Source of the DNA: Eledone cirrhosa
Taxonomy: Eukaryota
Assembly: GCA_964016885.1 (NCBI GenBank)
Contig: OZ024750.1
Location: 9,734,001 to 9,798,000, forward strand
DNA length: 64,000 nucleotides
Direction: 5' to 3'
Shown: in pieces, positions 2,801 through 52,059 of the stretch
Numbering within the stretch: position 1 is the stretch's first letter
Layout of the letters: every line of letters starts with the position of its first letter
Made by a program: the position numbers and the translations under genes
Notes under the pieces: model-generated
Seen by the model: the letters and a program-made list of their open reading frames with translations, nothing else
Databases searched by the model: none
Told to the model about the DNA's origin: nothing

Positions 2801-2894
2801 CTATATATATATATATATATACTACCAAATCAACTTTTTAAATGGAAGTTGAAGTTGAAAGGTATGTCAAATCTATCTATTTATAAGACTGTTT

Positions 2895-2971
2895 ATATTG
2901 TATTTTGTCTGAAGAAGGCATAACATATTTTTAATATGATATCCCTGAAATATATATAATGAAATAAATAT
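2895..2971 (+). ncRNA. type-I hammerhead ribozyme motif (HHR-1)
   Basis: CUGAAGA 2909-2915; stem II 2916-2946 (12 of 14 pairs); GAAA 2947-2950; palindromic stem III A-UAUAUA-U; AUA site (A2958); stem I UAUUUUGU/AUGAAAUA extended by AUAUU/AAUAU. Confidence 0.75.
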
Positions 2972-3030
2972 GGTTTTATAAATATAGTTTCCATTTATTT
3001 AATATCGTATATATATATATATATATATAT

Positions 3031-3326
3031 AAATGAAGTAATTCCGTCGGAAAAGTCCAGGAAAAAAGAGTGCTCTATGTAAGCAACAGAGCTTAATTAT
3101 TATTATGTAATAAACAACATAAGGCAATTATTCCATTTACCAGTGGTTTCTTAAAAGCAAAAGGTTTTGCTTTCAATCCTCAGAATGAAAAGAATGTTTT
3201 TAAGATCCAAATTCAATAAACAAACCAGGATTTTTTCATTCTGAGGATTGAAAGCAAAACCTTTTGCTTTTAAGAAACCACTGGTAAATGGAATAATTGC
3301 CTTATGTTGTTTATTACATAATAATA
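3031..3326. repeat. (TA)n-flanked cassette containing a perfect 94-bp inverted repeat
   Basis: Arms 3098-3191 and 3233-3326 are exact reverse complements around a 41-bp spacer; a related cassette without the palindrome lies at about 51877-52010. Confidence 0.9.
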
Positions 3327-3654
3327 TATATATATATACACACACACACCGACATAATATAGATATATATATATATATACATATATACACATCAGCTAGA
3401 CTCTCCAATCTTGAACATATTATTTATCTCATTCAATTCTTTTATCAGTGTTCAAATTTCAAATGTTTTTATCTCAATGAAATATTACTGGACTTTTATA
3501 CCAGTTCAGCAAAATAATTGCCTGACACAGAAAATCAATATCACACTAAGTTGACTTTAAAATAGAGAGAGGGAGAGGGAGCCATTATCAGTTTTATATA
3601 TATATACATATATACATATATATATACATATATGTTCCGTGTATAAATAAATAA

Positions 3655-3692
<38 letters not shown>

Positions 3693-3859
3693 ACTCTTAT
3701 CAGTTATATATATATACTGATAGACTTACAAATATGCATATATACCAATGAAAACAGATATATATATATATATTATATGTTGTGTGTGTGTACATACAAG
3801 GAGACATATATGTGTGTTAATGTATGTGTGTATATGTATATATGCATGTATGTGTTCGA

Positions 3860-4120
3860 GGCAACAAATTGGCAAAAGCCATATTTGTTCCAGTTCTCAG
3901 CCGTCCTTGCAGAATTGTTAGAACGCTGAGCAAAATGCTGTGCGATATTTGTTCCTGCTCTTTAAACTCTGAGCTCAAATCCTGCCAAGGTCAACTTTGC
4001 CTTTCGTCCTTCTGGGGTCGATAAAATAAAATACTAGTACTTAGTCACATACTGGGGTTGATATAATCATATTTCACTTTCCCCCAAATTGCTGGCGTTG
4101 TGCCTATGTTATAAAGAATT
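3860..4120 (+). mobile_element. tRNA-derived SINE family A (Nin/Deu-like central domain), diverged copy
   Basis: B-box-like GAGCTCAAATCC followed by AACTTTGCCTTTCGTCCTTCTGGGGTCGATAAAATAAA. Confidence 0.75.
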
Positions 4121-4709
4121 CTTGTTGTTGTTGTTTTAAGCCATGCACACATGGAAAGATGGACACTAAACTGTGATGATGATACACAAGATTATCGTTA
4201 TTTTATGTTAAACACAAAACTTTATCAACTGAGCTTCACATTTCCTATTAGAGAAGAGAGATTCTGGCTTCTTGAAGGAATCAAATTCCCAGAGAATTAC
4301 ACTCAAGTTATACTTCCAATTGACAGCTTAGTATCTAATACTGGGAACAGTGTTCAGCAGTAGTTAATGCTTGCTCCAGTTAATATGTAAACAATCTAAC
4401 TTCCAGAAATGTTTAGCTTGCACTAGCTTCAATCTTTCAGCCTATATCACCATGGAGACTTAGAAATTCATTTTGAAAGGAGAATGTAAATGAACCTCCA
4501 TTGGTTTCAACAATGGAGCTTCCAGTTGTTGCTTTTTATTAAATTGCCTACTTATTAAATTAACATGTAAGTGACTGCTATTCTTAACATTCTCAGGAAG
4601 ATTCAGTATGACACACTGAGTGACAAGGCTTCTACTCTTACAATCTGATGAGATGGTGAAAATTGGTTGTTGAAACTTTAGTGTTTTTGTTCCGTGTATA
4701 AATAAATAA

Positions 4710-4865
4710 ATGATTGTTTCTACTATAGGCACAAGGCCAGCAATTTGAAGGGGAGGGGAAAGTTGATTAAATCAACCCCAGTGCATTACTGGTACTTTAT
4801 TTATCGACCCCTTGTAAGGATGAAAGGCAAAGCTAACCTCGGCAGGATTTGAACTCAGAACATAA
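4710..4865 (-). mobile_element. SINE family A, 5'-truncated
   Basis: Reverse complement of the GAGTTCAAATCC...GTCGATAAAATAAAGTACCAG...GGCCTTGTGCCTATAGTAGAAAC consensus. Confidence 0.85.
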
Positions 4866-5523
4866 ATGAATTATACAATATATTGTTATATTATGAATAA
4901 TGCTTCATAAACCCTTAATCACCCCCCAGTAGTGCCTTAGACTTTATGATGACCCTCAATAGAAGCAATATTTTCAGAAGTAAATACAGAGGAATTAGTT
5001 TATATATATAAGATATTGATAATCTAAGTGTTAGGCAACCATTGACTAGCTTATTAAACTCACTTCAAACCTCCTGTGGCTATAATATAGAAGAGAATTT
5101 ATTAACACTATAAAGAGAAAGAATAGATTAATCTTAACTTATATAACATTTGATAAATACCTGAACAATATATAGTAAAATTCTACAGCTATGTAAAGCT
5201 AATCTTTTCTTTTTTGTTTTGCTCCTGACTTTTGATCGAAATAAGAATACAAAAGTCGTAGGTTAATAAAAAGTTAAATACAATAGGTAATGGAAAAAAA
5301 ATAATAAAGTAATCTATTTATCCTGTAGTTACTGAAAGAGCAATTCTGAACTAATAAAATATATAATATAATATACTGTGTATATATATATTTATATATA
5401 TATACACATTTATATATACATGTAAGCGTGGAATATGGACGTTAAACGATGATGATGATCATGATGATGATGCACATATGTATTTATATATACATGCATA
5501 TGTTTATATATATTTATACACAA

Positions 5524-5568
<45 letters not shown>

Positions 5569-5963
5569 ATAGGTTGTAGATTTTAGCAACACTCTAGAAT
5601 GATCTAGCTTTTTTTTCTTTTTTTTCTAAACTCCAATCAAGACCACAGAGCCTTTACATCAATGCATTATTGATCTCAAGATGATACAAATGATTTTCAC
5701 CTTGTGTTTGAACTTCCATTAACTATTGACCTTAATAATAAATTGAGGTGACTATAGAATATTTTCCTAAAACCACTCTTTCAAAACCATTCTAGTTTTT
5801 AATGCCATATGAATAGTTTGAATTTTCTGTTCTTTTTTGGTTTGTTTTATTGTTGTTTTTCTTTTATATATATTTTGTAATATAAATTGAATTGTTTTAC
5901 AAAAGGCAAAATTTATATAAATTCTAAAAGAAACTTCTTTTATCATAAGATTTCCTTCTTTAG

Positions 5964-6408
5964 CCCTTTCATCACCACATTTCTAATGAAATATAATTCT
6001 ATATTAATTTATTAATTAAGAATTTCGAAGGATTTACTAAAATTATTAATTATTTCATCACTAAGATAGTAACTTAATGTAAGGTTCTTATATAAAATTA
6101 TGTTGGAAGATTTCAATATGAATTAGAAACCTTTACATTACTCTATATATACTATTGTATTTTTGTGATAAAGGCATTATCTCACATAATTATCTCACAA
6201 AATATTGACTCTATAAGATTTTGTTATTATTTATTTTGAGAATAATACCTTAACATGTGTATGTGTGGCTAGTTACAGCTGGTTTGAACAGAAAGAAGTG
6301 AGAGAATTCTGGCCAGATATGGCCGGTTTAAATGCTTAAGGGTTAAAATAGAATGTTATATTTCATAGAACTAGAGCTGGTTTTGGCCAGGGTTGGTAAC
6401 AAAAGGGC
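5964..6408. mobile_element. piggyBac-like MITE family 2 with a nested family-1 copy (about 6130-6342)
   Basis: CCCTTT...AAAGGG ends with degenerate TTAA-like flanks (TTAG, CTAA); inner segment matches 24454-24880 and ends AAGGG|TTAA; outer part is the reverse complement of 40389-40725. Confidence 0.65.
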
Positions 6409-7075
6409 TAAAACTAATGTCTTGATGAAAGTTGAAATGATATCTATTTTCTGTTTGGTTCACTGAGTCAATTAGTGTAAAACTTTGTTAACGGTCATGC
6501 TATGATGGTTATGTGGTTATGGCAGGATTTTGGTGGGTAGCAGCAAAATAAGTTATGTTGTCAGAAGAAGAGTAAACTTTATAACTAGAAAGCTGCAAAG
6601 CCGCTTGTTTTAAGTTGCTAACTAATAACTAGTTAATCAAGTTGCTAATTAACAACTTATGTAACTTCACTAATTATAGATTAAATGAATTTCTGTATAT
6701 GAAGACCCAGTGCAGTCACTTAACTAGATATTGGATCACGTATATGTTATTAAGGAAACTACTTGTATCTGGTTACAGAAGATCGACCATAAAGATGTCT
6801 GGAGATTCTATTAATTCAATAAACTTCAAGTTAATACTTGTTAATGTTTAGAAATTTTGACATTTCTATTCCTTAAATTTACAACTTGAAGAATGTGAAA
6901 TTTTATGAGTGGTCCAACATTTTACTTTAACTCTGGACTAATTTACTTGTCATCACTATAATTTCTCTTGGAATCAGTTCAAGGGGATTGAAAGAGAAAA
7001 TTGAAACTTCTATAAAATTTTGTCAAGTTGAGATTTACAGTTATTCAAGAAGTATGCTTCTATTATTATTATTGC

Positions 7076-7315
7076 AGTGGATTGGCAGTATCGGTAGAGG
7101 GCCGGACGCCATGCTTTCACGCATAGAGTTACGGTCCTTTATGATCTGAGTTCAAATCCCGCCGAGGTTAACTTTGCCTTTCATCCTTACGGGGTCGATA
7201 AAATAAAGTACCAGTCACGCACTGGGGTCAATTTAATCGACTTTCCCCTCCCCCAAAATTGCTGGCCTTGTGTCTATATAAGAAACAATTATTATTATTA
7301 TTACTATTATTATTA
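7076..7315 (+). mobile_element. SINE family A, near full length with (ATT)n tail
   Basis: A-box-like TGGCAGTATCGG, B-box GAGTTCAAATCC, central GCCTTTCATCCTTACGGGGTCGATAAAATAAAGTACCAG. Confidence 0.9.
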
Positions 7316-7484
7316 TTTAGGAGCTTATTTCAGACATATACAATTAATTCTAAGCTAAAGAAAGGGATTTGAAATGTCAATCTCAACTTTTAGTTCTTCA
7401 GTTCTAAATTATAAATTTACATCCAAAAACAGTAAATAACAAAAGAGAAGAAACTAACGGTACTTTGCATAAGAAAAGTCTCAA

Positions 7485-7700
7485 GTCTGTCTCGAACCTG
7501 GAAGTTCATCGGGCCAGTCCTTATCTCAGTTTCCGTGGCATGAAGTGACTGAGAGTACAAGACTCTCCACTGGACAGAACATCAGTCTATTGCAGGGTTA
7601 AAGAACACAACATATAACCCAACCCAGTCCAAGAATTGAACAACATTACAATCATAAGTCCAACACCTTTAGCACTAGGCCTCGTGCCTCCACTTTGCAT
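7485..7700 (-). mobile_element. SINE family C (V-domain-like), reverse copy
   Basis: Reverse-complement similarity to 30690-30955 (CCCTGCAATAGACTGATGTTCTGTCCAG). Confidence 0.55.
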
Positions 7701-7939
7701 GGACAATAAATTATTTAGTGAAGTCCTGAAATATGAATACCTAATACATACCATCAACCCCTACAATGCTTACCCCTATGACTCTATCAAATGTAATGGG
7801 CCAGAGAGATTTAAATTCTTAATATATACCATCTCCCACTGCAATACCTGCCCTTATGACTCTATCAAAAGCTTAGGGCCAGAGATAAGATTAGAATTAT
7901 TTGATAACATAATTCTAAAGTTTATTTACACAACTGATA

Positions 7940-8152
7940 TGTTTTCGGCCAATTGCAGTGAAGGCCAGCAATTTAAGGGGGGGGGGGAGTCGATTAAATC
8001 AACTTCAGTGTGTTACAGGTACTTTATTTTACCGACTCTGCAATGATAAAAGGCGAAGCTAACCATGGCAAGATTTGAACTCAGAACATAAAGGGACATA
8101 ATTATATGCCACAAAGCATATTGCCCAACGCTCTACCAATTCTACCAATCCA
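7940..8152 (-). mobile_element. SINE family A
   Basis: GATTTGAACTCAGAAC...TCTACCAATTCTACCAATCCA is the reverse complement of the family head. Confidence 0.75.
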
Positions 8153-8879
8153 TCATATACTGCTATATAATACTGAAGGTATTACTCAGTAAAATTCTTA
8201 TATACCATTGCAACAGATACTTAAGAAACAGTCTTTTGTGCCACTGAAAGAAATATTACAGATGTTACAGATGTCTTTGCTTCTTCTTTGCTACATTTTT
8301 TTGTATTAAACTCCCTGCTTAACTTTAGCTACACCTGGCAGGTGTATTTGTTAATGAGATGTTTCATGCTTTGTTATTTATTTAGCTGATTCTCATTATC
8401 TTGCACTACTTCTAAGTATCCGTAATATTAATTGAGCTCCAGTTTTCTTATCAATTCTTATCATAAAATATATTCTTTGTCTTGTTTTCTTTGTTCTTTT
8501 TTGTTTAAGTTTTTTTTTTTTAAGTTTTTTTTCTTCATTTAAAAAATGTTTACCATTTTAATAAACAACACTTGTTCCCATGGAAACTGTATTGAGATGT
8601 CTGATATAAAAATGTTCCCTGTGTGATTCAGTTGATTAATCAAACTGTGTTTCCATTGGTCTTCCCATTGTTGATACCAGTTGCAACTCCTGGCAGAAAG
8701 AGTAAATGTAAAATAAAGTGTCTTGCTCAAGGACATAATGCATCACCCAGTCCAAGAATCAACCTCACAACCTCACAATTACAAATCCAATTCTCTAACC
8801 ATTAAGTCACACACCTTCATGTGATTCAATAAAATCTTTTAATTCTTGTTCTTGTTGTTGTTGATGGTGATGCTTGGCT

Positions 8880-9435
8880 GTGTTGCTACTACTACTATTG
8901 TTGTTGATGTTGGTGGTGGTGATAATGATAGTAGTGGTGATGGTAGTACTATTGCTGTTGTTGTTGTTGTTGGTGGTGGTGTTGCTACTACTATTGTTGT
9001 TGATGTTGGTGGTGGTGATAATGATAGTAGTGGTGATGGTAGTACTATTGCTGTTGTTGTTGTTGTTGGTGGTGGTGTTGCTACTACTATTGTTGTTGAT
9101 GTTGGTGGTGGTGATAATGATAGTAGTGGTGATGGTAGTACTATTGCTGTTGTTGTTGTTGTTGGTGGTGGTGTTGCTACTACTATTGTTGTTGATGTTG
9201 GTGGTGGTGATAATGATAGTAGTGGTGATGGTAGTACTATTGCTGTTGTTGTTGTTGGTGGTGGTGGTGTTGCTACTACTATTGTTGTTGATGTTGGTGG
9301 TGGTGATAATGATAGTAGTGGTGATGGTAGTACTATTGCTGTTGTTGTTGTTGTTGTTGGTGGTGGTGGTGTTGCTACTACTATTGTTGTTGATGTTGGT
9401 GGTGGTGATAATGATAGTAGTGGTGATGTTAGTAC

Positions 9436-9512
<77 letters not shown>

Positions 9513-9610
9513 GTGTTGCTGCTGCTGCTGGTATTGTTGTTGATGTTGGTGGTGGTGATAATGATAGTAGTGGTGATGGTAGTACTATTGCTGCTGTTGT
9601 TGGTGGTGGT
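8880..9610. repeat. 96-bp minisatellite built from GTT/GGT triplets
   Basis: GATAATGATAGT recurs at 8921, 9017, 9113, 9209, 9305 (period 96), then 9407 and 9557. Confidence 0.95.
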
Positions 9611-10074
9611 AGTGGTGATGTTTGACTGGTGGTGATGGTGTTGCTCCTACTATTGTTGTTGATGTTGTTGTAGTTGTTATTTTGAAAAAAAGCACCCTGA
9701 TTAACTTCATTCATGCAGAGTAAGAATTACACAGGTAGCTAATAAAAGTCGTTTGCATTCACTTCAGCTTTAATGCCATCTGGTCTTTATTATGAATATA
9801 AAAATATAAGTTTATTGCGGGATATTTAGCTTCTTAATTGTCAGGTTGGAAATTTCTCTGTTAAAGGTTAATTGCTTTATACATTTCAAGCCATCCATAT
9901 GATTAATTTCCTCCTCCCACCTTCCCTCATAGTTACTTCCCCTCAGGATCATTAGAGACAGTTTTTAAAAATCAGTGAAGATACGAAAATTCTCCTCACA
10001 ATTTCTGCCATGCTTAATACATTTATTTGCCTGATAATGTCTGTGACAGGAATAGTTGTAGCTAAGATATTAAC

Positions 10075-11245
10075 TTCACTATCACATAGCTGTGTAGTTA
10101 AAACTTTACCCTCATGACCACATAGCTGTGTAGTTAAGACTTTACCTTCACAACCACATAGCTGTGTAGCTAAGACTTTAGCTATACTATCACATAGCTG
10201 TGTAGTTAAGACTTTAGCTACATGACCACATAGCTGTGTAGCTAAGACTTTACCTTCACAACCACATAGCTGTGTAGCTAAGACTTTAGCTATACTATCA
10301 CATAGCTGTGTAGTTAAGACTTTAGCTACATGACCACATAGCTGTGTAGCTAAGACTTTACCTTCACAACCACATAGCTGTGTAGCTAAGACTTTAGCTA
10401 TACTATCACATAGCTGTGTAGCTAAGACTTTAGCTATACTATCACATAGCTGTGTAGCTAAGACTTTAGCTATACTATCACATAGCTGTGTAGCTAAGAC
10501 TTTAGCTATACTATCACATAGCTGTGTAGCTAAGACTTTAGCTATACTATCACATAGCTGTGTAGTTAAGACTTTAGCTACATGACCACATAGCTGTGTA
10601 ATTCAGACTTTAGCTACATGACCACATAACTGTGTAGCTAAGACTTTAGCTATACTATCACATAGCTGTGTAGCTAAGACTTTAGCTATACTATCACATA
10701 GCTGTGTAGCTAAGACTTTAGCTATACTATCACATAGCTGTGTAGCTAAGACTTTAGCTATACTATCACATAGCTGTGTAGCTAAGACTTTAGCTATACT
10801 ATCACATAGCTGTGTAGCTAAGACTTTAGCTATACTATCACATAGCTGTGTAGTTAAGACTTTAGCTACATGACCACATAGCTGTGTAATTCAGACTTTA
10901 GCTACATGACCACATAACTGTGTAGCTAAGACTTTAGCTATACTATCACATAGCTGTGTAGCTAAGACTTTAGCTATACTATCACATAGCTGTGTAGCTA
11001 AGACTTTAGCTATACTATCACATAGCTGTGTAGTTAAGACTTTAGCTACATGACCACATAGCTGTGTAGTTAAGACTTTAGCTACATGACCACATAGCTG
11101 TGTAGTTAAGACTTTAGCTACATGACCACATAACTGTGTAGTTAAGACTTTACCTTCACGACCACATAGCTGTGTAGTTAAGAATTTACCTTCATGACCA
11201 CATAACTGTGTAGTTAAGACTTTACCTTCATGACCACATAGTTTC
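10075..11245. repeat. 36-bp minisatellite (about 32 copies) derived from a SINE tRNA-like head
   Basis: Unit ATCACATAGCTGTGTAGCTAAGACTTTAGCTATACT with three variants; the last unit runs into a SINE family-B body (11245-11340). Confidence 0.9.
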
Positions 11246-11443
11246 AAGTTTAATCCCAGTGCTTAGCATCTTAGGTGAGTGTCTTTTATTAATAAAGCTT
11301 TAAATGAATTTAGAAGATGGAAATTGTGAGAAAGCCTATCATATATATATATATTATCACCATCTAGAAACGATCGTAAAGCAGTGAAGTATATCTTTAA
11401 TGACTTCATTTTTTATTTCATTGTTTTAACTTATATATATATG

Positions 11444-11483
<40 letters not shown>

Positions 11484-11484
11484 T

Positions 11485-11874
11485 GTTCTGAGTTCAAATC
11501 TTGCCAAGGCTAACTTTGCCTTTCATCCTTACAGGGTCAATAAAATAAAGTACCAGTAATATACTGGATTGATTTAATCAACTTCTCCCCTAAAATTGTT
11601 GGTCTTATACCTAAATCAGAAACCATTATTATCGTTGTTTCTACTTTTGGCACAAGGCCAGCAATTATCCCAGTGAATTACTGGTACTTTATTTTATCGA
11701 CCCCGTAAGGATGAAAGGAAAAGTTAACCTTGGCGGGATTTGAACTCAGGCCCTTTGTGGTCTGAGTTCAAATCCCGCCGAGGTTAACTTTTCCTTTCAT
11801 CCTTACGGGGTCGATAAAATAAAGTACCAGTAATTCACTGGGATAATTGCTGGCCTTGTGCCAAAAGTAGAAAC
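11485..11874. mobile_element. SINE family A cluster: one + copy followed by a head-to-head inverted pair
   Basis: 11485-11630 (+), 11637-11749 (-), 11762-11874 (+). Confidence 0.9.
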
Positions 11875-19774: not shown

Positions 19775-20720
19775 TAGTTATATAGATATATTCTGGTGTA
19801 ATGGAGGAAGAATTTATAACCTTACATACTACACAGATATATTCTGGTATAATGGAGGGAGGGTTTATAACCTTAGTTGTTACACAGATATATTCTGGTA
19901 TAATGGAGGGAGGAATTATAACCTTAGTTGTTACAGATATATTCTGGTATAATGGAGGAATTATAACCTTAGTTGTTACACAGATATATTCTGGTATAAT
20001 GGAGGAATTATAACCTTAGTTGTTACACAGATATATTCTGGTATAATGGAGGAATTATAACCTTAGTTGTTACACAGATATATTCTGGTATAATGGAGGG
20101 TTTATAACCTTAGTTGTTACACAGATATATTCTGGTATAATGGAGGGTTTATAACCTTAGTTGTTACAGATATATTCTGGTATAATGGAGGGTTTATAAC
20201 CTTAGTTGTTACACAGATATATTCTGGTATAATGGAGGGTTTATAACCTTAGTTGTTACAGATATATTCTGGTATAATGGAGGGTTTATAACCTTAGTTG
20301 TTACAGATATATTCTGGTATAATGGAGGAATTATAACCTTAGTTGTTACAGACATATTCTGGTATAATGGAGGAATTATAACCTTAGTTGTTACAGATAT
20401 ATTCTGGTATAATAGAGGAATTATAACCTTAGTTGTTACAGATATATTCTGGTATAATGGAGAGTTTATAACCTTAGTTGTTACACAGATATATTCTGGT
20501 ATAATGGAGGGTTTATAACCTTAGTTGTTACACAGATATATTCTGGTATAATGGAGGGTTTATAACCTTAGTTGTTACAGATATATTCTGGTATAATAGA
20601 GGAATTATAACCTTAGTTGTTACAGATATATTCTGGTATAATGGAGGAATTATAACCTTAGTTGTTACAGATATATTCTGGTATAATGGAGGAATTATAA
20701 CCTTAGTTGTTATACAGATA
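19775..20720. repeat. 45/47-bp minisatellite (about 20 copies)
   Basis: Unit ACAGATATATTCTGGTATAATGGAGGAATTATAACCTTAGTTGTT(AC). Confidence 0.95.
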
Positions 20721-21184
20721 TTAAAGAGATGCAAAAATTGCTTTCACAATAAAATAAAAAATTTATAATGAAGATGAAATGTTACATAATATTTCATTAC
20801 ATCTTTTGTCTGTTGTTGCTGTGAAATTGTTTCTCTCTATTGGGGCAGCCATTGAATTATCACTTTAAACATCTGCTTTCTTTGATTTCCATTCCATTTC
20901 ATTTGGAATTAATAACATTGGTCCTCCTCTTGGTACTTTGTGTGTGTATGTGTCTGTGTGACTGTGTGTATGCGATTGGTGTGACTGTTTAGTTTTTCAC
21001 TGTTCAATCTATTTTCTTCTACAGTGGCAGGGGTAGGATGGGTATGAAGAATATTAGATGTTTGAATTGTTGAAGAAATTACTTTGTTGTGGTTGGATGC
21101 CATTTCCAACTGTAACCACTCAACTGTAAAATAAGGTCTGATACTTATTTTCAACTAGAAATACCGAAACTAATAAAGTAATAT

Positions 21185-28562: not shown

Positions 28563-29664
28563 CAGCCAACCAAATATATATATATGTATGTATGTGTGTG
28601 TTTGTAAATATATATGTATGTGTGTACAGATATGTGCACGCACACACACGCACGCGCATACACACACATACACGCGTATATGGTGAAAGTGAGGAGGTAG
28701 AAGTAGAAAGAGATCTGAGAATTTGGTTTGCTGTGAACTGGGTAGTGTTAAATTCCTAATGAAATTGCTAGCAAGTTGTATGGTGTGGTATTTAGCTGAC
28801 TGCTGATTTAGAGAGAGTTGCTGGGGGGAGTGGGTAGAGTTACAGAGAGACTTGCTGTGGGGGAATGGGTAGTCATATAGGGGGAGAGAGAGAGAGAGAT
28901 AGTAGAGGTAAGAGTGGGGAAAGACAGGCTAAATAAATAGAGTGGGAGTATGAGAAGGAAATAGAGATAGAGATAGAGAGAGGGGAAAATAGAAATTCAG
29001 AGAAATAGAGCAAGAAAGATGAATATAGAGAGACAGTCAGGCAGACTGACAGAGAGAGAAGGAAACTAACAAACAGAAAGATCAAATCAGATAGAGACAT
29101 AGTAGAAAAAGAAATATTTGACAAATAAAGAGAGGGTGCAAGAGAGAGAGGGATGGATAGATAGATAGAGAGAGTGAGAGAGACATGAAGATAAAATCTG
29201 AAAGAAAGAAAATGGCAGACAAACAAATCTAGACAGACAGACAGACAAATAAGAGAGAGTGCGAGATAGAGTAAAGTATGGGACAGTTGAACTGACTGAA
29301 ATATAGAAGTGACAATGTTTGATTGATTGACAGGTTGAGAGGAGACTGACTGACATATATATATATATATATATAGTGACAAAGAGACAGACACACACAC
29401 ACACATATATAGTGACAAAGAGACAGACTGTCTGACACATACAGAAACCAAAATAGATAAGCAGATACATACATTCACACACATAATTTGTGGAGGAGGA
29501 GGAAGTGCATTGCTGGTACTTTATTTTATCAACCCCAGCAAAGCTAACCCCAGTAGGGTTTGGCTTGGTTTCTATGGCTGGACTGAGTGCTTTTTGTTGT
29601 GACACCAAAATGACCACTTTACAGTGTGGACTGAGCGCTTTTGTCATGTCACCACTTTACTGAA

Positions 29665-30050
29665 ATAATTGTTTCTACTTCTGGCACAAGGCCAGCAATT
29701 ATCCCAGTGCATTACTGGTACTTTATTTTATCGACCCCGTAAGGATGAAAGGCAAAGCTAACCTCAGCAAGATTTGAACTCAGACCGTAAAGGACCGTAA
29801 CTCTATGCTGCAAAGCATAGCGTCCGACCCTCTACCGATACTACCAATCCAGTGCCCTTTACTGAAATAATTGTTTCTACTTTTGGCACAAGGCCAGCAA
29901 TTACCCAGTGTATTACTGGTACTTTATTTTATCGACCCCATAAGGATGAAAGGTAAAGTTAACCTCGACGGGATTTGAACTCAGAATGGCAAGGGCCGTA
30001 ACTCTGTGTCAAAGCATGGCGACCGACTCTCTACCGATACTGCCAATCCA
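29665..30050 (-). mobile_element. two tandem SINE family A copies
   Basis: TTTACTGAAATAATT is duplicated at about 29656 and 29858, flanking the first copy. Confidence 0.9.
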
Positions 30051-42364: not shown

Positions 42365-42369
42365 GTCAC

Positions 42370-43003: not shown

Positions 43004-43468
43004 TGTCTTGTATGTAATATTGGTTTCTGATTTAGGCACAAGGCCAACAATTTTGGGAGAGGGGAAAGTCGACTAAATTAACCCCAGTGCATTACTGGTA
43101 CTTTATTTTATCAACCCTGTACGGATGTCTTGTATGTAATATTGAAGAATATTTAGGTCCTATTTACAGTGCGACTGTGACCTACATTATTTCATTACTG
43201 GGATATTTTGACGACATTGGTTAAAGTTTGGAATGATAAAAATTAAAAATTGTTTCTATTTTTGGTACAAGGCCAGCAATTACCCAGTACATTACTGGTA
43301 CTTTATTGACCTCGTAAGGATGAAAGGCAAAGTTAACTTCGGCAGGATTTGAACTCAGTCCGTAAAGGGACGTAACTCTATGCTGGAAAGCATGGCGTTC
43401 GACCCTCTACCAATCCATCGCCCTATGATAAAAATTAATAATTGTTTCTACTTTAGGCACAAGGCCAG
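43004..43468 (-). mobile_element. SINE family A copies with TSDs
   Basis: TGTCTTGTATGTAATATTG duplicated at 43004 and 43126; ATGATAAAAATTAA duplicated at 43233 and 43425. Confidence 0.88.
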
Positions 43469-44269
43469 AATGTATGCATAACATATGTGGAGTTATATGA
43501 TGGTTGTTTAGTTGTCAAAGTTCTTTTGTCACATATATGCTGTTAGTCTGTAGAAGAAAAAACAGTCGTACTTATAAAACTTTATTCAATTTATTATCCA
43601 ATCAGTCAGAATCTGCAGATTTTTCTCTTTTTTTTCCTTCTTTCTTTCTTTTTTTCTCTTATTTCTTTCTTTCTTTTCTTTTTTCTTCCGGCTATTCTCA
43701 TTTCAGGAAGGAAATTTCACAGCAACTGCATTTAGATTTATTTAGATTTATTTTGTCTTTCCTTTATTGATACGAAAATATAGTCAGGGAATATAATCTC
43801 CCTTGTGACATTCTTCACCAAAGACATGTCTTTTATCGTATCGTTTGCTTGAGAAAATTGTTCGTTCAGCCATAGCAGATGATGTAGGATTTACCAGCAG
43901 AAGTTGGCAAACTGTACAAGTCTCTAATATTAGGTGCTTGGCATCAACTTGTTTTTGTTTTGTTTAGATTTAGATTGTCTATAATGTCTGCCAAACAATA
44001 AATAGCTATCTTTCTCATGAAAAAAATACCAAAAAAACTTTAAATTCCAGAAGTTGACTTATTAAAGAATTAATGTGAATGTCACTGGAGTAATTTTCTT
44101 CAACCAGAGATTAATTTCTGGTTTCTTCTTCTCTTTGTTGATTGTTTTTAGAAGCAATGTCTCCAGCTTTGAAAATACCATGTAAATTGCTTGAATACAG
44201 CGTTCGTTGACAGACGAGATTGGTAAATACAGCTTTAAAAAACACATCTACAATAGTCTTAAACCATCA

Positions 44270-44478
44270 CAAACCATGGGCTCCACTGCCTGCAATGCGA
44301 AGAAGAGGAAGATTGTCAAATACCGGTCTCCATTAAGACCTCTGGTGTCCTTGGTTCCCACACTGCTGATTTCCTTTGTAAAGTCGGAAAGACAGTGGCC
44401 TGCTTCAGGCTGGGTTGACTATTGTAGCAGGTGTCTCTGGCCATACCAGGCAGAAATGCCTTTACCATTTTGTCTGAA
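44270..44478 (+). pseudogene. second CRE-like C-terminal fragment
   Basis: CNAKKRKIVKY ... VSLAIPGRNAFTILS; similar to 42370-42632. Confidence 0.55.
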
Positions 44479-44796
44479 ATGTGGCTGAGGCACTGCACAG
44501 ACTGGTTTGGTGTGGTGTTTGTCCACCACTCACCTCTCCCTTTCTTTCTTTGCTTGATTCTTTTTTCTTTTTCTTCTTTTCATTTCCTTTTGTTGTTCTC
44601 TTTAATAGTGTGTTTTGTTTTTATATAAACAACTTTGTCAAATAGAATAGCCATTGTTTTCTTAAACTAACTGTAGAAATGTCTCTTCCCCAATGTATAG
44701 GAATTTTTAAGTCATAAATTTTATATTAGCTATAATCATGTTCTTAAAAGCTTTACACATCATAGAAGCTTGAAAACTTCAACGTAAGGCATGTAC

Positions 44797-44939
44797 TCTC
44801 TATATAATAAAACATATATACAAATAAAATTACATATAAAACCAAGTACATAAAAATGTACCATAAATCATTTAGGCTTAACAAAAATAAAATGTTTCTA
44901 CATATTTGGTACCTGTGCAACACCAAGTACTTCTGCTAG
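44797..44939 (+). mobile_element. short non-autonomous Helitron-like element
   Basis: 5' TCTCTATATAATAAAA; 3' GTACCTGTGCAACACCAAGTAC (degenerate hairpin) then CTAG|T. Confidence 0.5.
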
Positions 44940-45651
44940 TAATTTAATTCATTACCTTAACAGAATAATAGACTACCGGATTTGCTTTTCTTTATCATAA
45001 AGCCAATTAATCTTCTGTTTCTATCCGGTTGCCTTGGCTATTTTAGCTCCAAGCTGACAAATTAAACTAAAAGTTGAAGATTCATTAACTTAAGTTGTTT
45101 CCAGTGCCACTGGCTGAAAGATATAATTTCCAAACAAGTTGTTATACTTATCAATGTTATTGTCTTCAGCTTTCCTGGACACTGATGAAGCAAAGGTGAG
45201 GCTACTGACAACATTTTATCTGTCAAACATATCAACAATCCCATACCAGATATTTACCAAACTTCAAGAGGAAGGGGTCTATTAGGTCAGGTTTTCTTGC
45301 CATTCACTATTGCCAAACTGGTGATACGAGAAGAGTGGGGATACCAGCTTTAGTTAGAGTTTACTTGACAATTATATTGACCACAACATGGACTGAAAAT
45401 ATTTCTGTTTGGATGTCATTTATAATCTGTGGCAAATGATATTTGGTTGGTTCACAGATAGCGAGTCTGGGTTTGAGGGTATATGTGATTCTCAAGTTAA
45501 ATAAGCACAGTAGGTTGCATAGGGATAACATTGGGTTCGTTGAGGCCCCTGTTTATGAATAAAGAAAAAGAGCTGCGAGCAAACAACCACAATTATACTA
45601 GTTGGCTCCAAATAGTAACATGTCCAACAAAATTTCTAGTAACATAGTCAA

Positions 45652-45845
45652 AGCATTGCATCTGATGAGGAGATGTGGGTAGAATAAGCAAAGTTTCACT
45701 CATCAAGTACATTAGTTGGAGCACTGCATCTGATGAGGAGATGTGGGTAGAATAAGCAAAGTTTCACTCATCAAGTACATTAGTTGGAGCATTGCTTCTG
45801 ATGAGGAGATGTGGGTAGAATGAACAAAGTTTCACTCCTCAAGTG
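45652..45845 (+). repeat. 68-bp tandem repeat (3 copies), each carrying CTGATGAG
   Basis: CTGATGAG at 45662, 45730 and 45798. Confidence 0.9.
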
Positions 45846-47447
45846 TTCTCTTCAGGTCTTGAAAGATGCTAGAATATTGAACATGAGTGGAAGGAAATGA
45901 GTAATGAGAGGAAGTGATGCATGATGAGGTGATTGCTAAAAAATGAATGTGGTTTATGTATGTATGTTTATGTCAACAGGTCTATTTTAGTCTAAATTTT
46001 TTTGTGTTGTATTGGGAGAGAATGTCAAATGTTTTCTATAGTAGTGGTATAGAAATAAAGATTTAGAGACACAATCTTTAGTTTCGGCTTCATGATATAT
46101 ATATATATATATATAAAAGATAAATCCTTCTTTTTGGATTAGGAGCTGTTCTATAGTAAGTGTATTATCCTCATCATCTGCTACCTATTCTTGTCAGTTC
46201 ATACAGAATCACATCAAAACAATTGCAACAGAATTGAACTAGCAACTCATAACAGATAATGCATTGAGCTTCCACTAATAGCCACCATCTAGCAGCTTCT
46301 TCTAATAACTGTCGTTTAGCTTTTACCAATAATTATCATTTATTTTCTAATAAAAATTAATACATAGCCGATAGTCTTTCATCGATTGTTGAGATCATTT
46401 ATCATTTATCATTTTTGTTATATATATGTTGGTGTTTTGTGATATGTTTACAAGAAGCTGTTTGAGAAGCCCCGTAGTGTAACATAAACACTATTGATTA
46501 GCTAGAATACAACTTTACACGATGTCATTAATTGTGATCGATATTTGATAAACATGTGAGAGAGATGAGTAGCAGAATTTGTATCATATGAAGCAAAATA
46601 TCATACTCCTTTAAACCTTAAGTTATGAGTTCTAATTTCGCCGAAGTCAGTTTTATTTTTCACCCCTTCTCCTTCAAAATAACTTAGTTTATTCTGCTTT
46701 GTGGACTTTTTAAACTAAATATACGCTGATGTAGACCACTGCCAACTTTCTCAGATTCCACTGTTTTGCTCTGTCTCTTGTTATTCGGGTCTCTCTAAAA
46801 TAAATACTAATCAAGTATTGATTTAATCATTTCGGCACCAAATGTGCATCCTTGTGTCAAATATTTCATTAATTTATATTAGATATGGCATTTCATGTAT
46901 TGGTAGTTTGAAAGGTAATAATAAGTATTTTGTTGAAATTCTACTTTAAACCATTCTTTTAAAAAAACTAACGTGACTTTAGTGCTAATATTTTTCGTTG
47001 TGGATGTTTATGACTAAGTTTTTTCAACATAAAGCATCGACTTCTAACAACAGCTGAATTTATTGACTCTCAACGAACTCTCCTGGATTTACTATTATCA
47101 TTATTATTGAAACATAGCATCACCAGTTCGCTCAGATTTCAGATTTTACTATTTAAAAGCTTAACTTTACATGTATTTCTAATTCTTCTTTTTGCTCTTG
47201 CTCAATCAGACTAGGGTCATCTTAGGTCAGTGATCCACATGCATCATTGTGCATAGAGCCAACCAGGTCTATCAGTGCCAGCTCCTCTGCATCCTCCAAG
47301 GTGATGTCAAGCCTCTGGAGACCCAGCGGGTAGACCCCAAGCGAGATGGTTGGATAACATTTATGAGCTTGGCTGGTCTGACTTTGGGTTTCAGTTGGAT
47401 CAATTGGAGGAGGAGGAAGAAGAATCCATTTGTGATTATATATATAC

Positions 47448-47493
<46 letters not shown>

Positions 47494-47575
47494 AAATAAC
47501 AGATTAAAGTTTAAGCAAAGAATCGCTGCTTTCACTCTTAACGGGTTGGATTTTAGTCTTCAAATTTATTATTAT

Positions 47576-47616
<41 letters not shown>

Positions 47617-47989
47617 ATTATATATATACTATGCATATATGTGATAATATATAAATACTGTGTATTAGGGTAGCCCTTAGCAATAGGTAATTTTCCGAAA
47701 GTTAACATTTTTCTGCTCCCACCCCCTAATCCTGTTCCAATCAACAAAAGAACTTGGTGTGCATAATTTCAGCTCAAACGGACAATTGTGAGGCGACCCT
47801 CAAACACCTTGAAGTTGGAACATAGTATGCGCAACGATTAATTCTGTTCAAAACTGTTCCCTATCTTAACCATTTTCTTTTTTCTTCTTAGAGAAATCTA
47901 TGTGCACACATCCAAGCAACCCCTGCAAATGTATATATATCAAGAGAGTACCAGGGGATAAGTCCCCCCCCCCCCACACTTTTCTAGCC

Positions 47990-48320
47990 TTCCTCCATGC
48001 CCCCACCCCCTTTTCTCTCCTTGTTTTCCTTTTCTCATTTTCTCATTGCTCTCCTTACTCTCCTTTTCTCCTTCCTCCCCTTGCTCTCCTTTTATCCTTG
48101 CCTCATTGCTCTCCCTTTATCATTGCTCTCCTTGCCTCATTGCACCCTTTGCTCTCCCTTTCTCACTGCTCTCCTTGCTCTCCTTTTATCCTTGCCTCAT
48201 TGCTCTCCTTTTCTTACGGCTCTCCTTTTTTCATTGCTCACCTTTTCTCACTGCTTTCCTTTTCTCCTTCCTCTCCTTTTCTCCTTACTCTCCTTTTATC
48301 CCTGCTCTCCCTGTCTTCTT
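47990..48320. repeat. pyrimidine-rich repeat (CTCATTGCTCTCCTT-like units)
   Basis: Direct reading of the sequence. Confidence 0.8.
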
Positions 48321-48401
48321 GTATCTATATACTTGTTTATATACAAATACAATGAGAAAAGTGGAGCAACGAGAAATATGAAAGCAAGTATAGTAAGGAG
48401 A

Positions 48402-48441
<40 letters not shown>

Positions 48442-48497
48442 CTCAATACTGAGTACTCATTTCTCTCAGCTGTCAACCACATAAGGATATATGTATA

Positions 48498-48870
48498 TCA
48501 GGGTGGCCCTTAGTAATAGGTAATATTCCAAAAGTTAAAATTTTGCTTCTCCCACAGTGAAAAATAGGTGTTAGCCCTATACCTGCGCTCTGACCCAGCT
48601 TTGCAAGTTGCCTTCCCCATTATATTTATTGTCACTTATCCTTCTAATACCAAGAATAAGTCTCAACAAGTTTTTAATTTAAGAGAAAATTATATCTGAA
48701 AAAATGACTTTCCAGGCGAAAACTTCAAACTTTTACGGTCGATGAGGGTCACCTTGTAGTTAACCACTTGAGCTAAAATTTTGCAGGGATTTGGGTTTTG
48801 TAAATTGTAACAAAATAAGGGGGTGGGAGCTAAACTTTTAGAAAGTTGAAAAATAAGAGCTACCCTACTG
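48498..48870. mobile_element. Tc1/mariner-like MITE (degenerate TIRs, TA-rich flanks)
   Basis: CAGGGTGGCCCTTAG...AAGAGCTACCCT; related left end at 47666-47730. Confidence 0.45.
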
Positions 48871-49084
48871 TGTATATATATATATATATATATATATTAG
48901 GTATAGGATTATCCAAGATGCAGTGATGGTTAATTACTACACTAGATATGGTTGACGTACGGTAAGAGGTTACTCTACGAGTTATGGAAGAATTGTTCAA
49001 GAAACTTAGTTCCTGATCCTTCAGTATTCCGGAGTGTATATAAAGAATGAATAATAACAGGTAGACATCATAAAAAGGTAGTTT

Positions 49085-49208
49085 ATTCCGTGTGCTTACA
49101 AGTGTTTCCACGGTGGTACTGCAGCCTAGTTCCGCTACGTGCAAATTCACAAGTATTTGCAGAACTCGAATATCCAATGCTGTGACCACTGTTTCCTCAG
49201 AGCAGAAT
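49085..49208 (-). ncRNA. type-I hammerhead ribozyme motif (HHR-3) in the Penelope-like 3' region
   Basis: Minus strand: UGCU-CUGAGGA (49200-49194), long stem II, GAAA (49108-49105), ACA-CU-UGU, GUA site, AGCA; the first stem II pair is an A.G mismatch. Confidence 0.7.
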
Positions 49209-49697
49209 GGTAAATATACAATGTAAAAACCCTTAAGTGGGGTTGTTGGGGAAGATAGAGTGGAACAGGAAGAGAGAAAAGTAGGGAAGATGGAGAGAGA
49301 AGGAAAGATATGCAGGGGTTGGAGAAGTAGGAGAGAGTGGCTTGTAGATATCTTAATCAAAATAATATGGTAGGGGTTTTATTAGTTACTTTTGGAGAGA
49401 TGCGTAGATAGTTGAGGTCGGAATTATTTATTGCCCCAGAGGTCAAGTTCATAGATGTTGAGAGGGAGGTACGTCAAAGGTGAGAGAGAGAGAGTGTAAT
49501 GGATGTAGAGATAGATATATAGGTAGAGAGGGGACAGATAAAGTATATGTGGTGAGTGAACTTTTGGTTTTGTAGTTGTAATCTAGGAATTGTACTGAGT
49601 TACCATGTATAGTGATAAGCAGTGTATTGTCTTGTAGTGTGGGGGAGAAGAGAAGGTTGTTAGCTAGAAAGTGGTGTTGTAGTTACGGGTTCAAATG

Positions 49698-50024
49698 TTA
49701 AGTTATTTTATAGTGAGAGAATTTAGCTTTTAGTTTGTGGTTGCAGTATAATGATCGTTCAATTCTATCGTTAAGTAGTTTGTTTTTGGATTTTAGTATG
49801 TAAAATAGCTCAAGGTTACATAACCTGCAGTACTTCAAACCACTCCGATATGCATTTGCGCTGGAAAGTATGTCCCATTTTAAGGTGAACTGTTGGTTGT
49901 GTTCACGGAGTTGCCAGGTCTTGTTGGCGAGCGTGGTCACAAAACGGTGATTCTGATGTTTGATTGAGAATCGATGACGGTACCAGCGAGATTTAAACGA
50001 TGTGGTGGTAGATCCGATATAATA
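49698..50024 (-). pseudogene. GIY-YIG endonuclease C-terminal part of a Penelope-like element
   Basis: Uninterrupted frame YYIGSTTTSFKSRWYRH...LKWDIL...CRLCNLELFYI...LLNDRIE..CNH. Confidence 0.85.
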
Positions 50025-51419
50025 CCATGGATAACATGTTATTATTCATTCTTTATATATATATATATATATATATGAAAAATATGGGGCGAAGAATACT
50101 GCATGGTTGCACATGGATAACATGTTATAAAATGAGTCCCTCATCAGTGATTTGCCAACGGTCATTGGTATTTCATTGCATTAAAAATCATATACCTCAC
50201 GTTGGTGCAATAATAACTAAAATAAGTTATTAGGACAATTAAAACGCGTAAAACGAGTGAGACAAGTAAACAAACAGGGGAAAGCTAACCGAAGAATATA
50301 TATATACACGCGCACACACACACACATATACCCCCCTCCTATTCTTCCTTCCTTCTGTCAATCAAAATGTCAGTTTGCCTTAATTATGGAAGCAAAAATA
50401 TTAAGTGAACCAATCTGATCTGACACGATATCCTTTTTTGAATTCCTTAGACAAAGGCCAGACAGCAAATGAAATGTAAGACTAAACCAGATCCCTATTT
50501 ATTTATTTATTTATTTATTGCTTTATTTATCTATTTCCGGTAAAGATATATATATATGTATAGATAGATAGAGAGTGAGATTTAGCCGATAGCCAGATCT
50601 GTCTTACAGGCGACATCAGTTGTTCGACATAGCTCCACTTGTAAGCAATGCTTGGACACTAGATGACTGCATGCTAGATGGTTTTGTCACCCAATGCACA
50701 TCTCAGACAGGCCTGGCTAATGACACTTCCATACCTTATTTTGAACCGGCAATACCTCCCAGTAGTACTGCCAAGCCAAAACCGGTCCAAGGTTGAAAGA
50801 TCTCTAGAACTTAACTGGCCTGTCCATCCAACACCCCATCATTGCTGTTGGGTGGCATAGATCTCTCTCTCCAGGTGCCAAATGTAAGCCCATTGACTTT
50901 TTCTCCTGTTACCATCTCATTCACCCTTAGAAGGGGGCCGACCACCTCAATGTGTTTCAATGCACCTAGGTCTAGGTGCAATTTGGGTTTAGTTTTTGTT
51001 GTTGTTATTGTTGTCATTGTAGTCGTCATTGTTGTGCTGGTGGTAAAGTTGGTATTGAAGTCTACTATTATTTTTATTACTGAATTAAGCTTCCATAATT
51101 TTTCTATTGTTTTCTTTTTTCTTAATATATTCTATTATTGATTGAAGTAACAACAATTATAAGAATAACATTAAGTATTATTAAACATATACTCTCTAGT
51201 TATATTCCTATAACATTATTTTAGTGTGTAGTATACGTGCAATAGAGTGTAATAGTCAATCAAAATATATTTTAGTCCCTGCACGTTAAATCTTTATTAG
51301 TAATACATTTTTAATTGCGTGTTTAGTCTTCCATAAAGTTTTAACGTTTTCCCAACTGTAGTTGAAATTTGTTTACCTTTTCGGAACGGAGATGTTAGGA
51401 CATGTGGTTGGTAAATAAT

Positions 51420-51523
51420 TGTTTCTACTTTAGGCACAAGGCCAGCAATTACCCAGTGCATTACTGGTACTTTATTTTATCGACCCCCGTAAGGATGAAA
51501 GGCAAAGTCAACCTCGGCGGGAT
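51420..51523 (-). mobile_element. SINE family A, 5'-truncated, with TSD
   Basis: TTGGTAAATAAT on both sides. Confidence 0.85.
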
Positions 51524-51548
51524 TTGGTAAATAATGATGTTATTTATG

Positions 51549-51635
51549 TTGTTTAATAGATTCTGAAGAAATCAATACATAGGAAATGTGTTTTCGTACT
51601 GTATTGATTGAAACGTTCGTAAATCAATTAAATAA
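51549..51635 (+). ncRNA. type-I hammerhead ribozyme motif (HHR-2)
   Basis: GAUU-CUGAAGA (51563-69); perfect 10-bp stem II AAUCAAUACA/UGUAUUGAUU; GAAA 51610-13; stem III ACG-UU-CGU; GUA site (A51621); AAUC plus a 9-bp stem I extension. Confidence 0.85.
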
Positions 51636-51690
51636 TTTAATGTAATTTAATCCTGGTTATTTTTATTCATTATATACATATATATATATA

Positions 51691-51768
51691 TAGGGTGTCC
51701 CCCAAAAATGTATACACATATTCATCAGAATGCTCTTGAAGTGTCTACATTATTTTGGGAAACCCTGT
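51691..51768. mobile_element. Tc1/mariner-type mini-MITE of about 77 bp
   Basis: AGGGTGTCCCCCAAAAATGTATACAC ... GTGTCTACATTATTTTGGGAAACCCTG|TA; relative at 27580-27678. Confidence 0.6.
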
Positions 51769-51785
51769 ATATATATACATATATT

Positions 51786-51822
<37 letters not shown>

Positions 51823-52002
51823 TATATGTGTGTGTGTGTGTGTGGTGTGTATGTGTATATATATATATATATATATAAATGAAATATTTCCGTCGGAAAG
51901 GTATAGGAGTGCTCTATGTAGGCTACAGACAAAACATTTTAACATCTGCCTTCAAGAAACCACTGGTAAATGAAATAATTATCTTATGTTGTTTATTACA
52001 TA

Positions 52003-52059
<57 letters not shown>

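Follow-up and report, generated by a model that had tools for sequence, protein, structure and literature searches.

A stretch of 64,000 nucleotides of the Eledone cirrhosa genome (contig OZ024750.1, G000:C10:9,734,001-9,798,000 in our numbering, from an assembly of 3.0 Gb), called the window here, holds 3' ends of Penelope-like elements (PLEs) lying in TA microsatellites, one of which carries a conserved hammerhead whose blocks stand in an order that is not a circular permutation of the canonical one. The order is cleavage site (S), GAAA (G) and CUGANGA (C), or type SGC, and we consider this explanation as a whole, with the permuted motif predicted to self-cleave, to be likely. More broadly, Naiad PLEs and their non-coding derivatives probably carry hammerheads in non-circular permutations that are invisible to canonical descriptors: SGC, with a stem II bridged through a four-way junction, in ctenophore, cnidarian, acanthocephalan, arthropod and cephalopod elements, and CSG in nematodes. 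If so, animal genomes would have yielded their first active permuted hammerheads, and the more than 10,000 copies in this genome would constitute a new kind of retrozyme. The labels H1 to H7 for the families of the window, and P, Q, IIa and IIb for helices, were coined in this analysis.

The family that carries the permuted motif is H5, and its window copy is organized as follows.

50067..50295, minus strand: H5, a Penelope-like repeat, non-coding and tandem-forming, with a 529-nt unit ending at (TA)n; the copy here is 5'-truncated
50136..50236, minus strand: permuted hammerhead with block order site-GAAA-CUGANGA (type SGC)
50236-50200, minus strand: upstream strand, with IIa' at 50236-50233, hairpin P at 50232-50211, IIb' at 50210-50206 and Q' at 50205-50200
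50196-50185, minus strand: block S, with the stem III 3' strand at 50196-50192, H17 at 50191 and the stem I 3' strand at 50190-50185
50180-50167, minus strand: block G, with IIb at 50180-50176, GAAA at 50174-50171 and the stem III 5' strand at 50171-50167
50160-50136, minus strand: block C, with Q at 50160-50155, the stem I 5' strand at 50153-50148, CUGANGA at 50147-50141 and IIa at 50139-50136

The core is complete, with CUGANGA, GAAA, the pair A15.1-U16.1 and an H17 that is not G, and the predicted cut lies between 50191 and 50190. Positions follow the conventional hammerhead numbering, in which cleavage occurs after an NUH triplet. The window copy forms six helices: stem I (6 bp), stem III (5 bp), helix Q (6 bp), which sits beside stem I, IIa (4 bp), IIb (5 bp) and hairpin P (7 bp). 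A direct stem II between blocks C and G was not found, only pair 10.1-11.1 being direct; stem II is instead rebuilt by IIa, which follows CUGANGA, and IIb, which precedes GAAA, both of which pair with an upstream bridging strand. As this strand holds hairpin P between IIa' and IIb', a four-way junction sits on pair 10.1-11.1. The CUGANGA at 50147 was also considered as part of a type I, II or III hammerhead and rejected as such, because no GAAA follows the core.

Permuted hammerheads of the orders SGC and CSG have been described from metatranscriptomes or metagenomes (Eckert et al., 2023; PMC10085705), and the SGC order cannot be reached by circular permutation (PMC10085705). According to that paper, a single bacterial GCS candidate apart, no known organism's genome was found to contain a permuted RNA. 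The environmental SGC ribozymes and H5 share the S-G-C order, the full core, a helix Q next to stem I, and a linker of few nucleotides that joins stem I to the strand preceding GAAA. In the former stem II forms directly between G and C, whereas in H5 the bridging strand pairs with both and inserts a hairpin. On its pairing scheme, the H5 motif appears to be a variant working like SGC and not a member of the HRIMA-1 motif, because its stem II strands pair with the upstream bridging strand instead. The two also differ in setting, H5 residing in an animal retroelement at more than 10^4 copies and its cleavage being predicted only, in contrast to the environmental origin of the published ribozymes.

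Covariation was assessed in two alignments. The first comprised 17 relatives picked by homology and covered five helices, IIa being left out owing to a register shift; 94.1% of the cells were paired and 12 of 30 pairs had changed on both sides, whereas slid controls reached at most 42%. The second (A3) was built from 25 of 30 loci found by a sequence pattern (five truncated loci were dropped) plus the window, giving 26 rows and six helices. Here 95.2% were paired, with 12 of 31 pairs double-changed and slid controls at no more than 51%; the way this alignment was built forces blocks G and C to be invariant, but not block S. Compensatory changes occur in five of the six helices, long-range ones included. 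Stem I accounts for double changes at four of its six pairs in the 17-row and three of six in the 26-row alignment (99% paired), stem III for one (89-98% paired), and at one locus (L359) three pairs of Q have changed together. The permuted fold is thus, in our judgement, very probably real.

The pattern used for A3 specifies only blocks G and C. It has 10,578 exact genomic matches, its reversed control has none, and the window's own subfamily is missed by it. Among the first 30 of these loci, the unspecified block S pairs into an 8-bp stem I at 26 and into a stem III of 5 bp or more at 23, with H17 being A or C throughout; of the four loci that fail at stem I, three hold 5'-truncated copies. 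In tandem arrays each unit contains the motif as a fixed internal element, with units of 529 nt or of about 620-750 nt and arrays of up to nine units of about 750 nt, and no coding open reading frame (ORF) was found in these units. The window copy of H5 is 98% identical to a unit at another locus (L197), and a first look yielded 2,764 candidates for its family. The copies show the footprint of a PLE: the 3' end is fixed at (TA)n, the 5' ends are staggered, and there are partial head-to-tail tandems and inverted pieces. A second SGC family (L407-L436, 32 matches), whose fit was judged by eye, is unrelated to H5 in sequence, old and decayed, and has no ORF nearby. At a further locus (L313:4-1500) a 499-codon ORF with DKG, Neptune- or Poseidon-like among PLEs, lies beside an H5-type insertion and is probably a chance neighbor.

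Animal non-LTR retrozymes (PMC7229834; preprint 10.64898/2026.07.22.740005) consist of 170-400-nt units with type I hammerheads, and their circles have been demonstrated experimentally. They resemble H5 in being non-coding tandems with one hammerhead per unit, and their mobilization by PLEs has been proposed; H5-type units are longer (529-750 nt) and carry a permuted in place of a type I core.

The connection to Naiads comes from published element sequences, inspected by eye and unsystematically in partial views of 54 entries, so that the figures below are cases and not a rate. Naiads have been described as lacking canonical hammerheads, with some flagged 'HHR_core' or 'HHR_half_core' (Craig, 2021; PMC8557442). 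SGC or CSG folds were seen at the 3' ends of 18 of the 54 entries. Eleven carry SGC with a bridged stem II, including Naiad_Obim, Ovul, Amil, Aacu, Anas, Movir-2 and Plae and, identified by file order, a Clytia entry (near part 9), a crustacean entry (part 19) and a squid entry (part 25, with a weak IIb); in Bfor the fold is weak, stem I having only 2 bp and P being missing. In the coral entries the helices measure 13 (III), 6 (I), 7 (IIa), about 5 (IIb) and 9 bp (Q). Seven nematode entries (Nbra-1, -2, -3, Hcon, Hpol, Asuum and, by file order, Pristionchus near part 13) have CSG, their stem II being direct and 4-5 bp long. In the passages inspected, no permuted fold was seen at the ends of several entries, among them Movir-1, Dcar, Lpol and the two clam selenoprotein entries. 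The passages covering the ends of Naiad-1_Movir, Scon and Mmer likewise contain no permuted hammerhead; these three have in common a short conserved motif that looks twister-like, and Naiads may swap ribozyme classes.

Naiad_Obim, Naiad_Ovul and other consensus sequences thus have by eye an H5-like SGC motif, and many of them target (TA)n, whereas H5 has no ORF. None of the Naiad hallmarks (N-terminal GIY-YIG, CxC, DKA, reverse transcriptase (RT) with IFD) was present in the H5 loci scanned, and H5 would be at most a non-autonomous Naiad derivative. The term type SGC was found in the literature only in PMC10085705, no permuted hammerhead in a retrotransposon was found in work since 2021, subscription journals being thinly covered in both searches, and no account of a permuted Naiad ribozyme was found, the Naiad passages of the 2026 retrozyme preprint being silent on it. 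That a permuted animal hammerhead is absent from earlier print is suggested by these searches, not proven.

Five further families are represented in the window by PLE ends with hammerheads of type I or, in H7, a truncated core.

2821..3015, plus strand: H1, Hydra-clade PLE 3' end with type I hammerhead core 2909, a 31-nt stem II insert and H17 at 2958
3032..3326, both strands: H4, an inverted pair of 3' ends (minus copy 3191-3032 including the tail, plus copy 3195-3326) with hammerheads 3183(-) and 3241(+)
48895..50056, minus strand: H3, 5'-truncated Hydra-clade PLE comprising unit positions 2192-3180 and a 147-nt tail, with GIY-YIG at 50027-49704, type I core 49200, an 85-nt stem II insert, H17 at 49097 and a 23-nt inverted piece at 50034-50056
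51069..51670, plus strand: H2, older PLE 3' end with type I core 51563, a 40-nt insert, H17 at 51621 and an interruption at 51420-51523 that resembles a short interspersed element (SINE)
52054..52263, minus strand: H7, Hydra-type PLE 3' end that breaks off within the CUGANGA core and has a stem II insert of about 110 nt

With a strict type I descriptor four motifs were recovered in the window (cores 2909(+), 3241(+), 51563(+) and 3183(-)), whereas 100 block-wise dinucleotide shuffles averaged 0.01. A fifth, at 49200(-), is recovered once the descriptor is relaxed to permit one additional nucleotide or a mismatched pair 10.1-11.1; its first stem II pair is an A.G mismatch. The first-pass annotation of the window had named three foldable hammerheads (2895, 49085 and 51549), which are genuine and correspond to cores 2909(+), 49200(-) and 51563(+). 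The architecture it described for them also holds in all three: a long stem II, with inserts between CUGANGA and GAAA of 31, 85 and 40 nt, respectively, a stem III of 3 bp with a 2-nt loop, and an interrupted stem I. 'Foldable' applies to 51563 (z -3.75 against shuffles), but the other four motifs lie at the level of shuffled sequence (z -1.5 to +0.1). Its four probable relics turned out to be of different kinds: 3175-3290 consists of the two intact H4 hammerheads in opposite orientation, 50142 is the intact permuted hammerhead of H5, 45662 belongs to a 68-bp tandem, and 61420 is indeed a decayed copy, of a minimal-hammerhead family with a short stem II. H7 is an additional family that had been overlooked.

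Candidates for each family were counted genome-wide in a first look and 40 per family were scored for H1 to H4. The counts were 1,361 for H1, 496 for H2, 1,538 for H3 and 273 for H4; the best copies are 99-100% identical for H1, H3 and H4, and 88-94% for H2 (40 best, excepting the window's own). Within 250 nt downstream of the copies (TA)4 occurs in 28 of 30 (H1), 24 of 30 (H2) and all 30 (H3 and H4 alike), compared with a background of 32%, so that the adjacency to (TA)n reported earlier is a property of every family scored.

Longer copies of H3, H1 and H4 have an RT and a GIY-YIG ORF upstream on the same strand. The H3 window copy is 99.3% identical to a full-length copy (L122), where an ORF of 774 aa from its ATG encodes an RT together with, at the C terminus, an endonuclease (EN) of the GIY-YIG type. 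In H1 and H4 both domains are present in frameshifted pieces: the H1 window copy matches, at 99.5% identity, the 3' end of long copies in which GIY-YIG is located some 1.38 kb upstream, and for H4 a Hydra-type EN lies 2.3-2.45 kb upstream at two loci (L129, L130). The published diagnostics of the Hydra clade are RWK, DKG changed to DKT, a CxCX5C linker, the lack of CCHH, CxxC/CxH and (TA)n targets (PMC8557442). H3 has RWK at residue 37 and DKT at residue 115, the CxCX5C linker, no CCHH, and CxxC/CxH, with one Cys between the GIY and YIG positions of the EN. The RWK/DKT region is missing from the available copies of the other families, and the linker and the EN motifs (no CCHH; CxxC and CxH around the conserved E and N) are common to H3, H1, H4 and H7. 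Because these diagnostic motifs are present (in H3, all of them), H3, H1, H4 and H7 are assigned to the Hydra clade. The type I families H1, H3 and H4 are accordingly read from their protein motifs as Hydra-clade PLE ends. The link is weaker for H2, for which Hydra-type ORF fragments were found at three of 30 longer loci (two in the same orientation) and whose end anatomy fits a Hydra PLE; an ORF at L135 first considered for H2 belongs to H7. Pfam gave a weak GIY-YIG match on the window piece (E 0.002, below the cut-off) and nothing relevant on the longer ORFs. We regard the Penelope-like identity of the window families as nearly certain.

Hydra-1_Obim of Octopus bimaculoides has a (TA)n target and a hammerhead in the published supplement (PMC8557442), and the resemblance of the H-family proteins to it was judged by eye only. 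Published Hydra-clade PLEs and the H families agree in a C-terminal GIY-YIG without CCHH, the linker, the EN motifs and (TA)n (PMC8557442), and also in carrying, close to the 3' end, a type I hammerhead whose stem III is short and self-complementary. Here there are several families, with pairwise EN identities of 27-40%, some of them young and with intact ORFs. The EN of H3 has 60,405 first-look candidates, and 21 of 150 scored lie in open frames of 776-786 codons, three of them with one stop. The H3 unit is 3,180 nt long, and the 3' regions of H1 and H4 measure 1.4-2.4 kb, with 3' untranslated regions of up to 2.4 kb, unlike published Hydra elements; the families thus exceed the length of less than 3 kb given for the clade, which is a descriptive and not a diagnostic trait in that paper.

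Two further observations concern the copies of H4 and H2. Long copies of H4 (L129:2308-2405 and 4089-4219; L130) have two hammerhead-like motifs on the same strand, about 1.8 kb apart and downstream of the ORF, the first with a mismatch at the first stem I pair. The SINE-like piece in the H2 copy (51408-51535 region) has a 12-bp target duplication, and relatives of it occur at 11711-11800 and in a 201-bp tandem at 29655-30050.

Beyond the window, the type I descriptor was run on 60 arbitrarily placed 10-kb stretches (599,600 nt), with round coordinates and no weighting for length. This sample contained 24 matches, three of which form one tandem, and none occurred in any of 12 shuffles. For 19 of these matches (TA)4 is no more than 200 nt away; the same holds for 84 out of 428 other cores and for 24% of sites placed at random. 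The comparison with shuffled sequence and the enrichment near (TA)n that the first-pass annotation had proposed as checks thus both came out in its favor. Extrapolation gives about 1.2 x 10^5 type I copies genome-wide (Poisson range about 0.8-1.8 x 10^5). An alignment of 34 distinct H1-group sequences, picked by homology from 66 after removal of TA-repeat noise and of truncated and near-duplicate rows, had 92.4% of its cells paired and double changes at eight of 21 pairs, seven of these in stem II, with slid controls at 52% or less. One sampled locus (L250:6450-7940) holds three tandem copies of a 528-nt non-coding unit, each with a type I hammerhead with a stem II of about 50 nt and a 10-nt palindromic stem III; taken with its inverted 5' piece and the (TA)n that ends its tail, the array looks like a classical retrozyme with a PLE footprint.

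The idea of a diverse and abundant set of ribozyme-bearing retroelement termini or retrozymes in TA microsatellites is borne out by the links to Hydra-clade ORFs and by the non-coding tandem units, but the part on ribozyme-bearing termini in TA microsatellites is already published (PMC8557442; PMC4209133). What is new in the type I part is only the long stems II and the abundance of about 10^5 copies. Stem II inserts of the 24 sample matches span 18-109 nt (median 31), compared with at most 26 nt in the published Hydra table (counted by eye; the table comes from a descriptor search), and a long stem II is listed for a spike-moss PLE (PMC8557442). H1-H4 and H7, with their 3-bp stem III, likewise have much longer stems II than the minimal hammerheads of metazoan PLEs (PMC4209133).

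For the Hydra-clade families, we propose that the RT/GIY-YIG protein would nick (TA)n and prime cDNA synthesis either at the end of the pseudo-long terminal repeat (pLTR) or 147 nt beyond it, at the end of the tail. Among 47 distinct 3' ends of H3, 23 lie at 3179-3180 and 21 at tail positions +144 to +149; these two sites and the tail match the two internal RT start sites of an Anolis PLE (PMC11167929). The cDNA would usually stop early and often invert, so that short ribozyme-bearing termini would accumulate in the same tracts; the 5' ends of H3 are scattered and often inverted. Of about 105 H3 5' ends 11 fall within 20 nt, on the 3' arm of a hairpin that lies inside the long stem II (unit positions 3076-3095, window about 49125-49145); this may be a pause of the RT, and was noticed post hoc in a biased sample. 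At the 5' junction of the H3 window copy, 50026-50042 is a 17-nt direct repeat of 50112-50128 in the neighboring H5 copy across the TA tract, and looks like a templated insertion copied from the flank while the insertion was resolved. The stem III inserts of the type I motifs are self-complementary or nearly so, and ribozymes with such short stems III are likely to act as dimers; dimeric cleavage fits because of this self-complementarity, as proposed in PMC4209133.

H5-type elements would be non-autonomous retrozymes, likely derived from Naiad 3' ends, and the SGC ribozyme, in which stems I and III are long, would act in monomeric form. Tandem or read-through transcripts would be cut to unit length, and the unit RNAs probably ligated into circles by a host ligase and then copied in trans by a Penelope-type RT. 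For the ligated circular intermediate of the non-coding units we would put the chances as about even, by analogy to other animal retrozymes, for which circles have been shown (PMC7229834).

Several observations weigh against these interpretations. For the type I motifs, the minimum free energy structure is the hammerhead fold in none of the five, and Rfam at E<=1 returned no hammerhead among the 150 of 153 window matches listed, only AT-repeat noise; the pseudoknotted permuted motif is beyond what single-strand folding can model. For the permuted motif, helix IIa has no double change in the 26 rows (one was seen by eye at L021), and stem II is a single pair followed by the junction, unlike in the validated SGC ribozymes. 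That pair, 10.1-11.1, is A-U in 20 of the 26 sequences, G.U in three, U-A in one and mismatched in two. The SGC counts reflect a few subfamilies and not independent events, and an SGC descriptor had no match in the 600-kb sample, where about two were expected. No intact Naiad with an SGC motif was found in this genome: the exact motif had no matches and a looser one three, one of which leads to the old, decayed SGC family without an ORF mentioned above. Because no intact Naiad was found, it is the RNA fold that ties H5 to Naiads. Finally, few 5' ends lie within 3 nt of the predicted cut (one of 23 for H3, one of 45 for H1, one of 32 for H4, none of 22 for H2 and three of 19 for SGC). Since full-length copies span the cut sites, those of H3 reading through the ribozyme, and 5' ends do not pile up there, the template would have been either uncut or re-ligated.

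Alternatively, the permuted motif could be a real, selected fold by which the PLE protein binds the RNA or is primed, and be catalytically dead or dependent on protein. The absence of a 5'-end pile-up would fit this, and a stem II reduced to one often mismatched pair points the same way. For an Anolis PLE, the hammerhead cut only with protein and its cleavage was not required for insertion in vitro (PMC11167929), and minimal PLE hammerheads cut poorly (PMC4209133). However, the positions that vary are those that are free in an active hammerhead, N7 (U or C) and H17 (A or C, never G), and the core is kept across sequence-unrelated families and across phyla. We therefore hold this alternative to be unlikely, and the permuted hammerhead is, on its conserved core and helices, likely to self-cleave.

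PLE insertions do generate inverted pieces, a few descriptor matches are such junctions (L175, L180), and shuffles gave three SGC matches in 20 x 600 kb, so that the S-G-C order might be an artefact of inversions or duplications, or a chance fit in AT-rich DNA. This is very improbable: the covariation of five helices, long-range ones too, largely refutes it, and the motif is fixed inside each tandem-array unit, has 10,578 pattern matches against none in the control, and recurs with the same architecture in unrelated sequences.

The first-pass annotation had further coupled its first two hammerheads, HHR-1 and HHR-2, to a common cassette, at 3031-3097 and 51877, as one system that could act on host transcripts. 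The cassette is the reverse-complemented 3' tail of H4, and its second copy belongs to a separate element.

51878..52010, both strands: H4-related mini-insertion, an inverted tail piece (the second cassette) and a half-hammerhead without CUGANGA

In the window the cassette does follow the query ends of HHR-1 and HHR-2, by 26 nt and about 230 nt respectively, but it is present at 18 of 30 H4 loci, none of 30 for H3, and one of 30 each for H1 and H2, in both cases the window itself; TA tracts are moreover very dense (75 in the window) and no clear host gene was seen there, so that a single system is hardly credible. The neighborhood of hammerheads and cassette is a chance co-insertion of different families into one TA tract.

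The other elements of the window lie outside these families.

61400..61500, plus strand: H6, decayed minimal hammerhead with a short, 4-bp stem II
45652..45844, no strand assigned: 68-bp tandem of 2.8 copies, not a hammerhead and outside the system

Other copies of H6 read as classical minimal hammerheads, in which the window copy has changed GAAA to GAAG. They match the minimal hammerheads of metazoan PLE pLTRs, with a palindromic or absent helix III and an extra nucleotide after A9, which are known in thousands of truncated copies (PMC4209133). The 68-bp tandem (45662) contains no GAAA block, and no second locus was found for it in a search that skips very common words. Long minisatellites occupy 8880-9557, 10057-11241 and 19784-20721 (periods of 96, 36 and 45 bp), two of them with open frames.

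If the permuted motif is what it appears to be, non-circularly permuted hammerheads would move from environmental RNA into animal genomes, and a new architecture would be added, with stem II rebuilt by a third strand. Censuses of ribozymes and retrozymes that rely on type I-III descriptors miss a class with more than 10^4 copies in a single genome. With its young families that have intact Hydra ORFs, and its roughly 10^5 type I hammerheads with long stems, this genome could also serve as a test system. The lack of canonical hammerheads in Naiads has been used to suggest that hammerheads may merely parasitise PLEs (PMC8557442). Naiads are among the most prolific PLEs, and a permuted hammerhead kept in them across phyla would make self-cleavage likely to be integral to the PLE cycle; it would then be a near-universal feature of PLE RNA and not an optional passenger.

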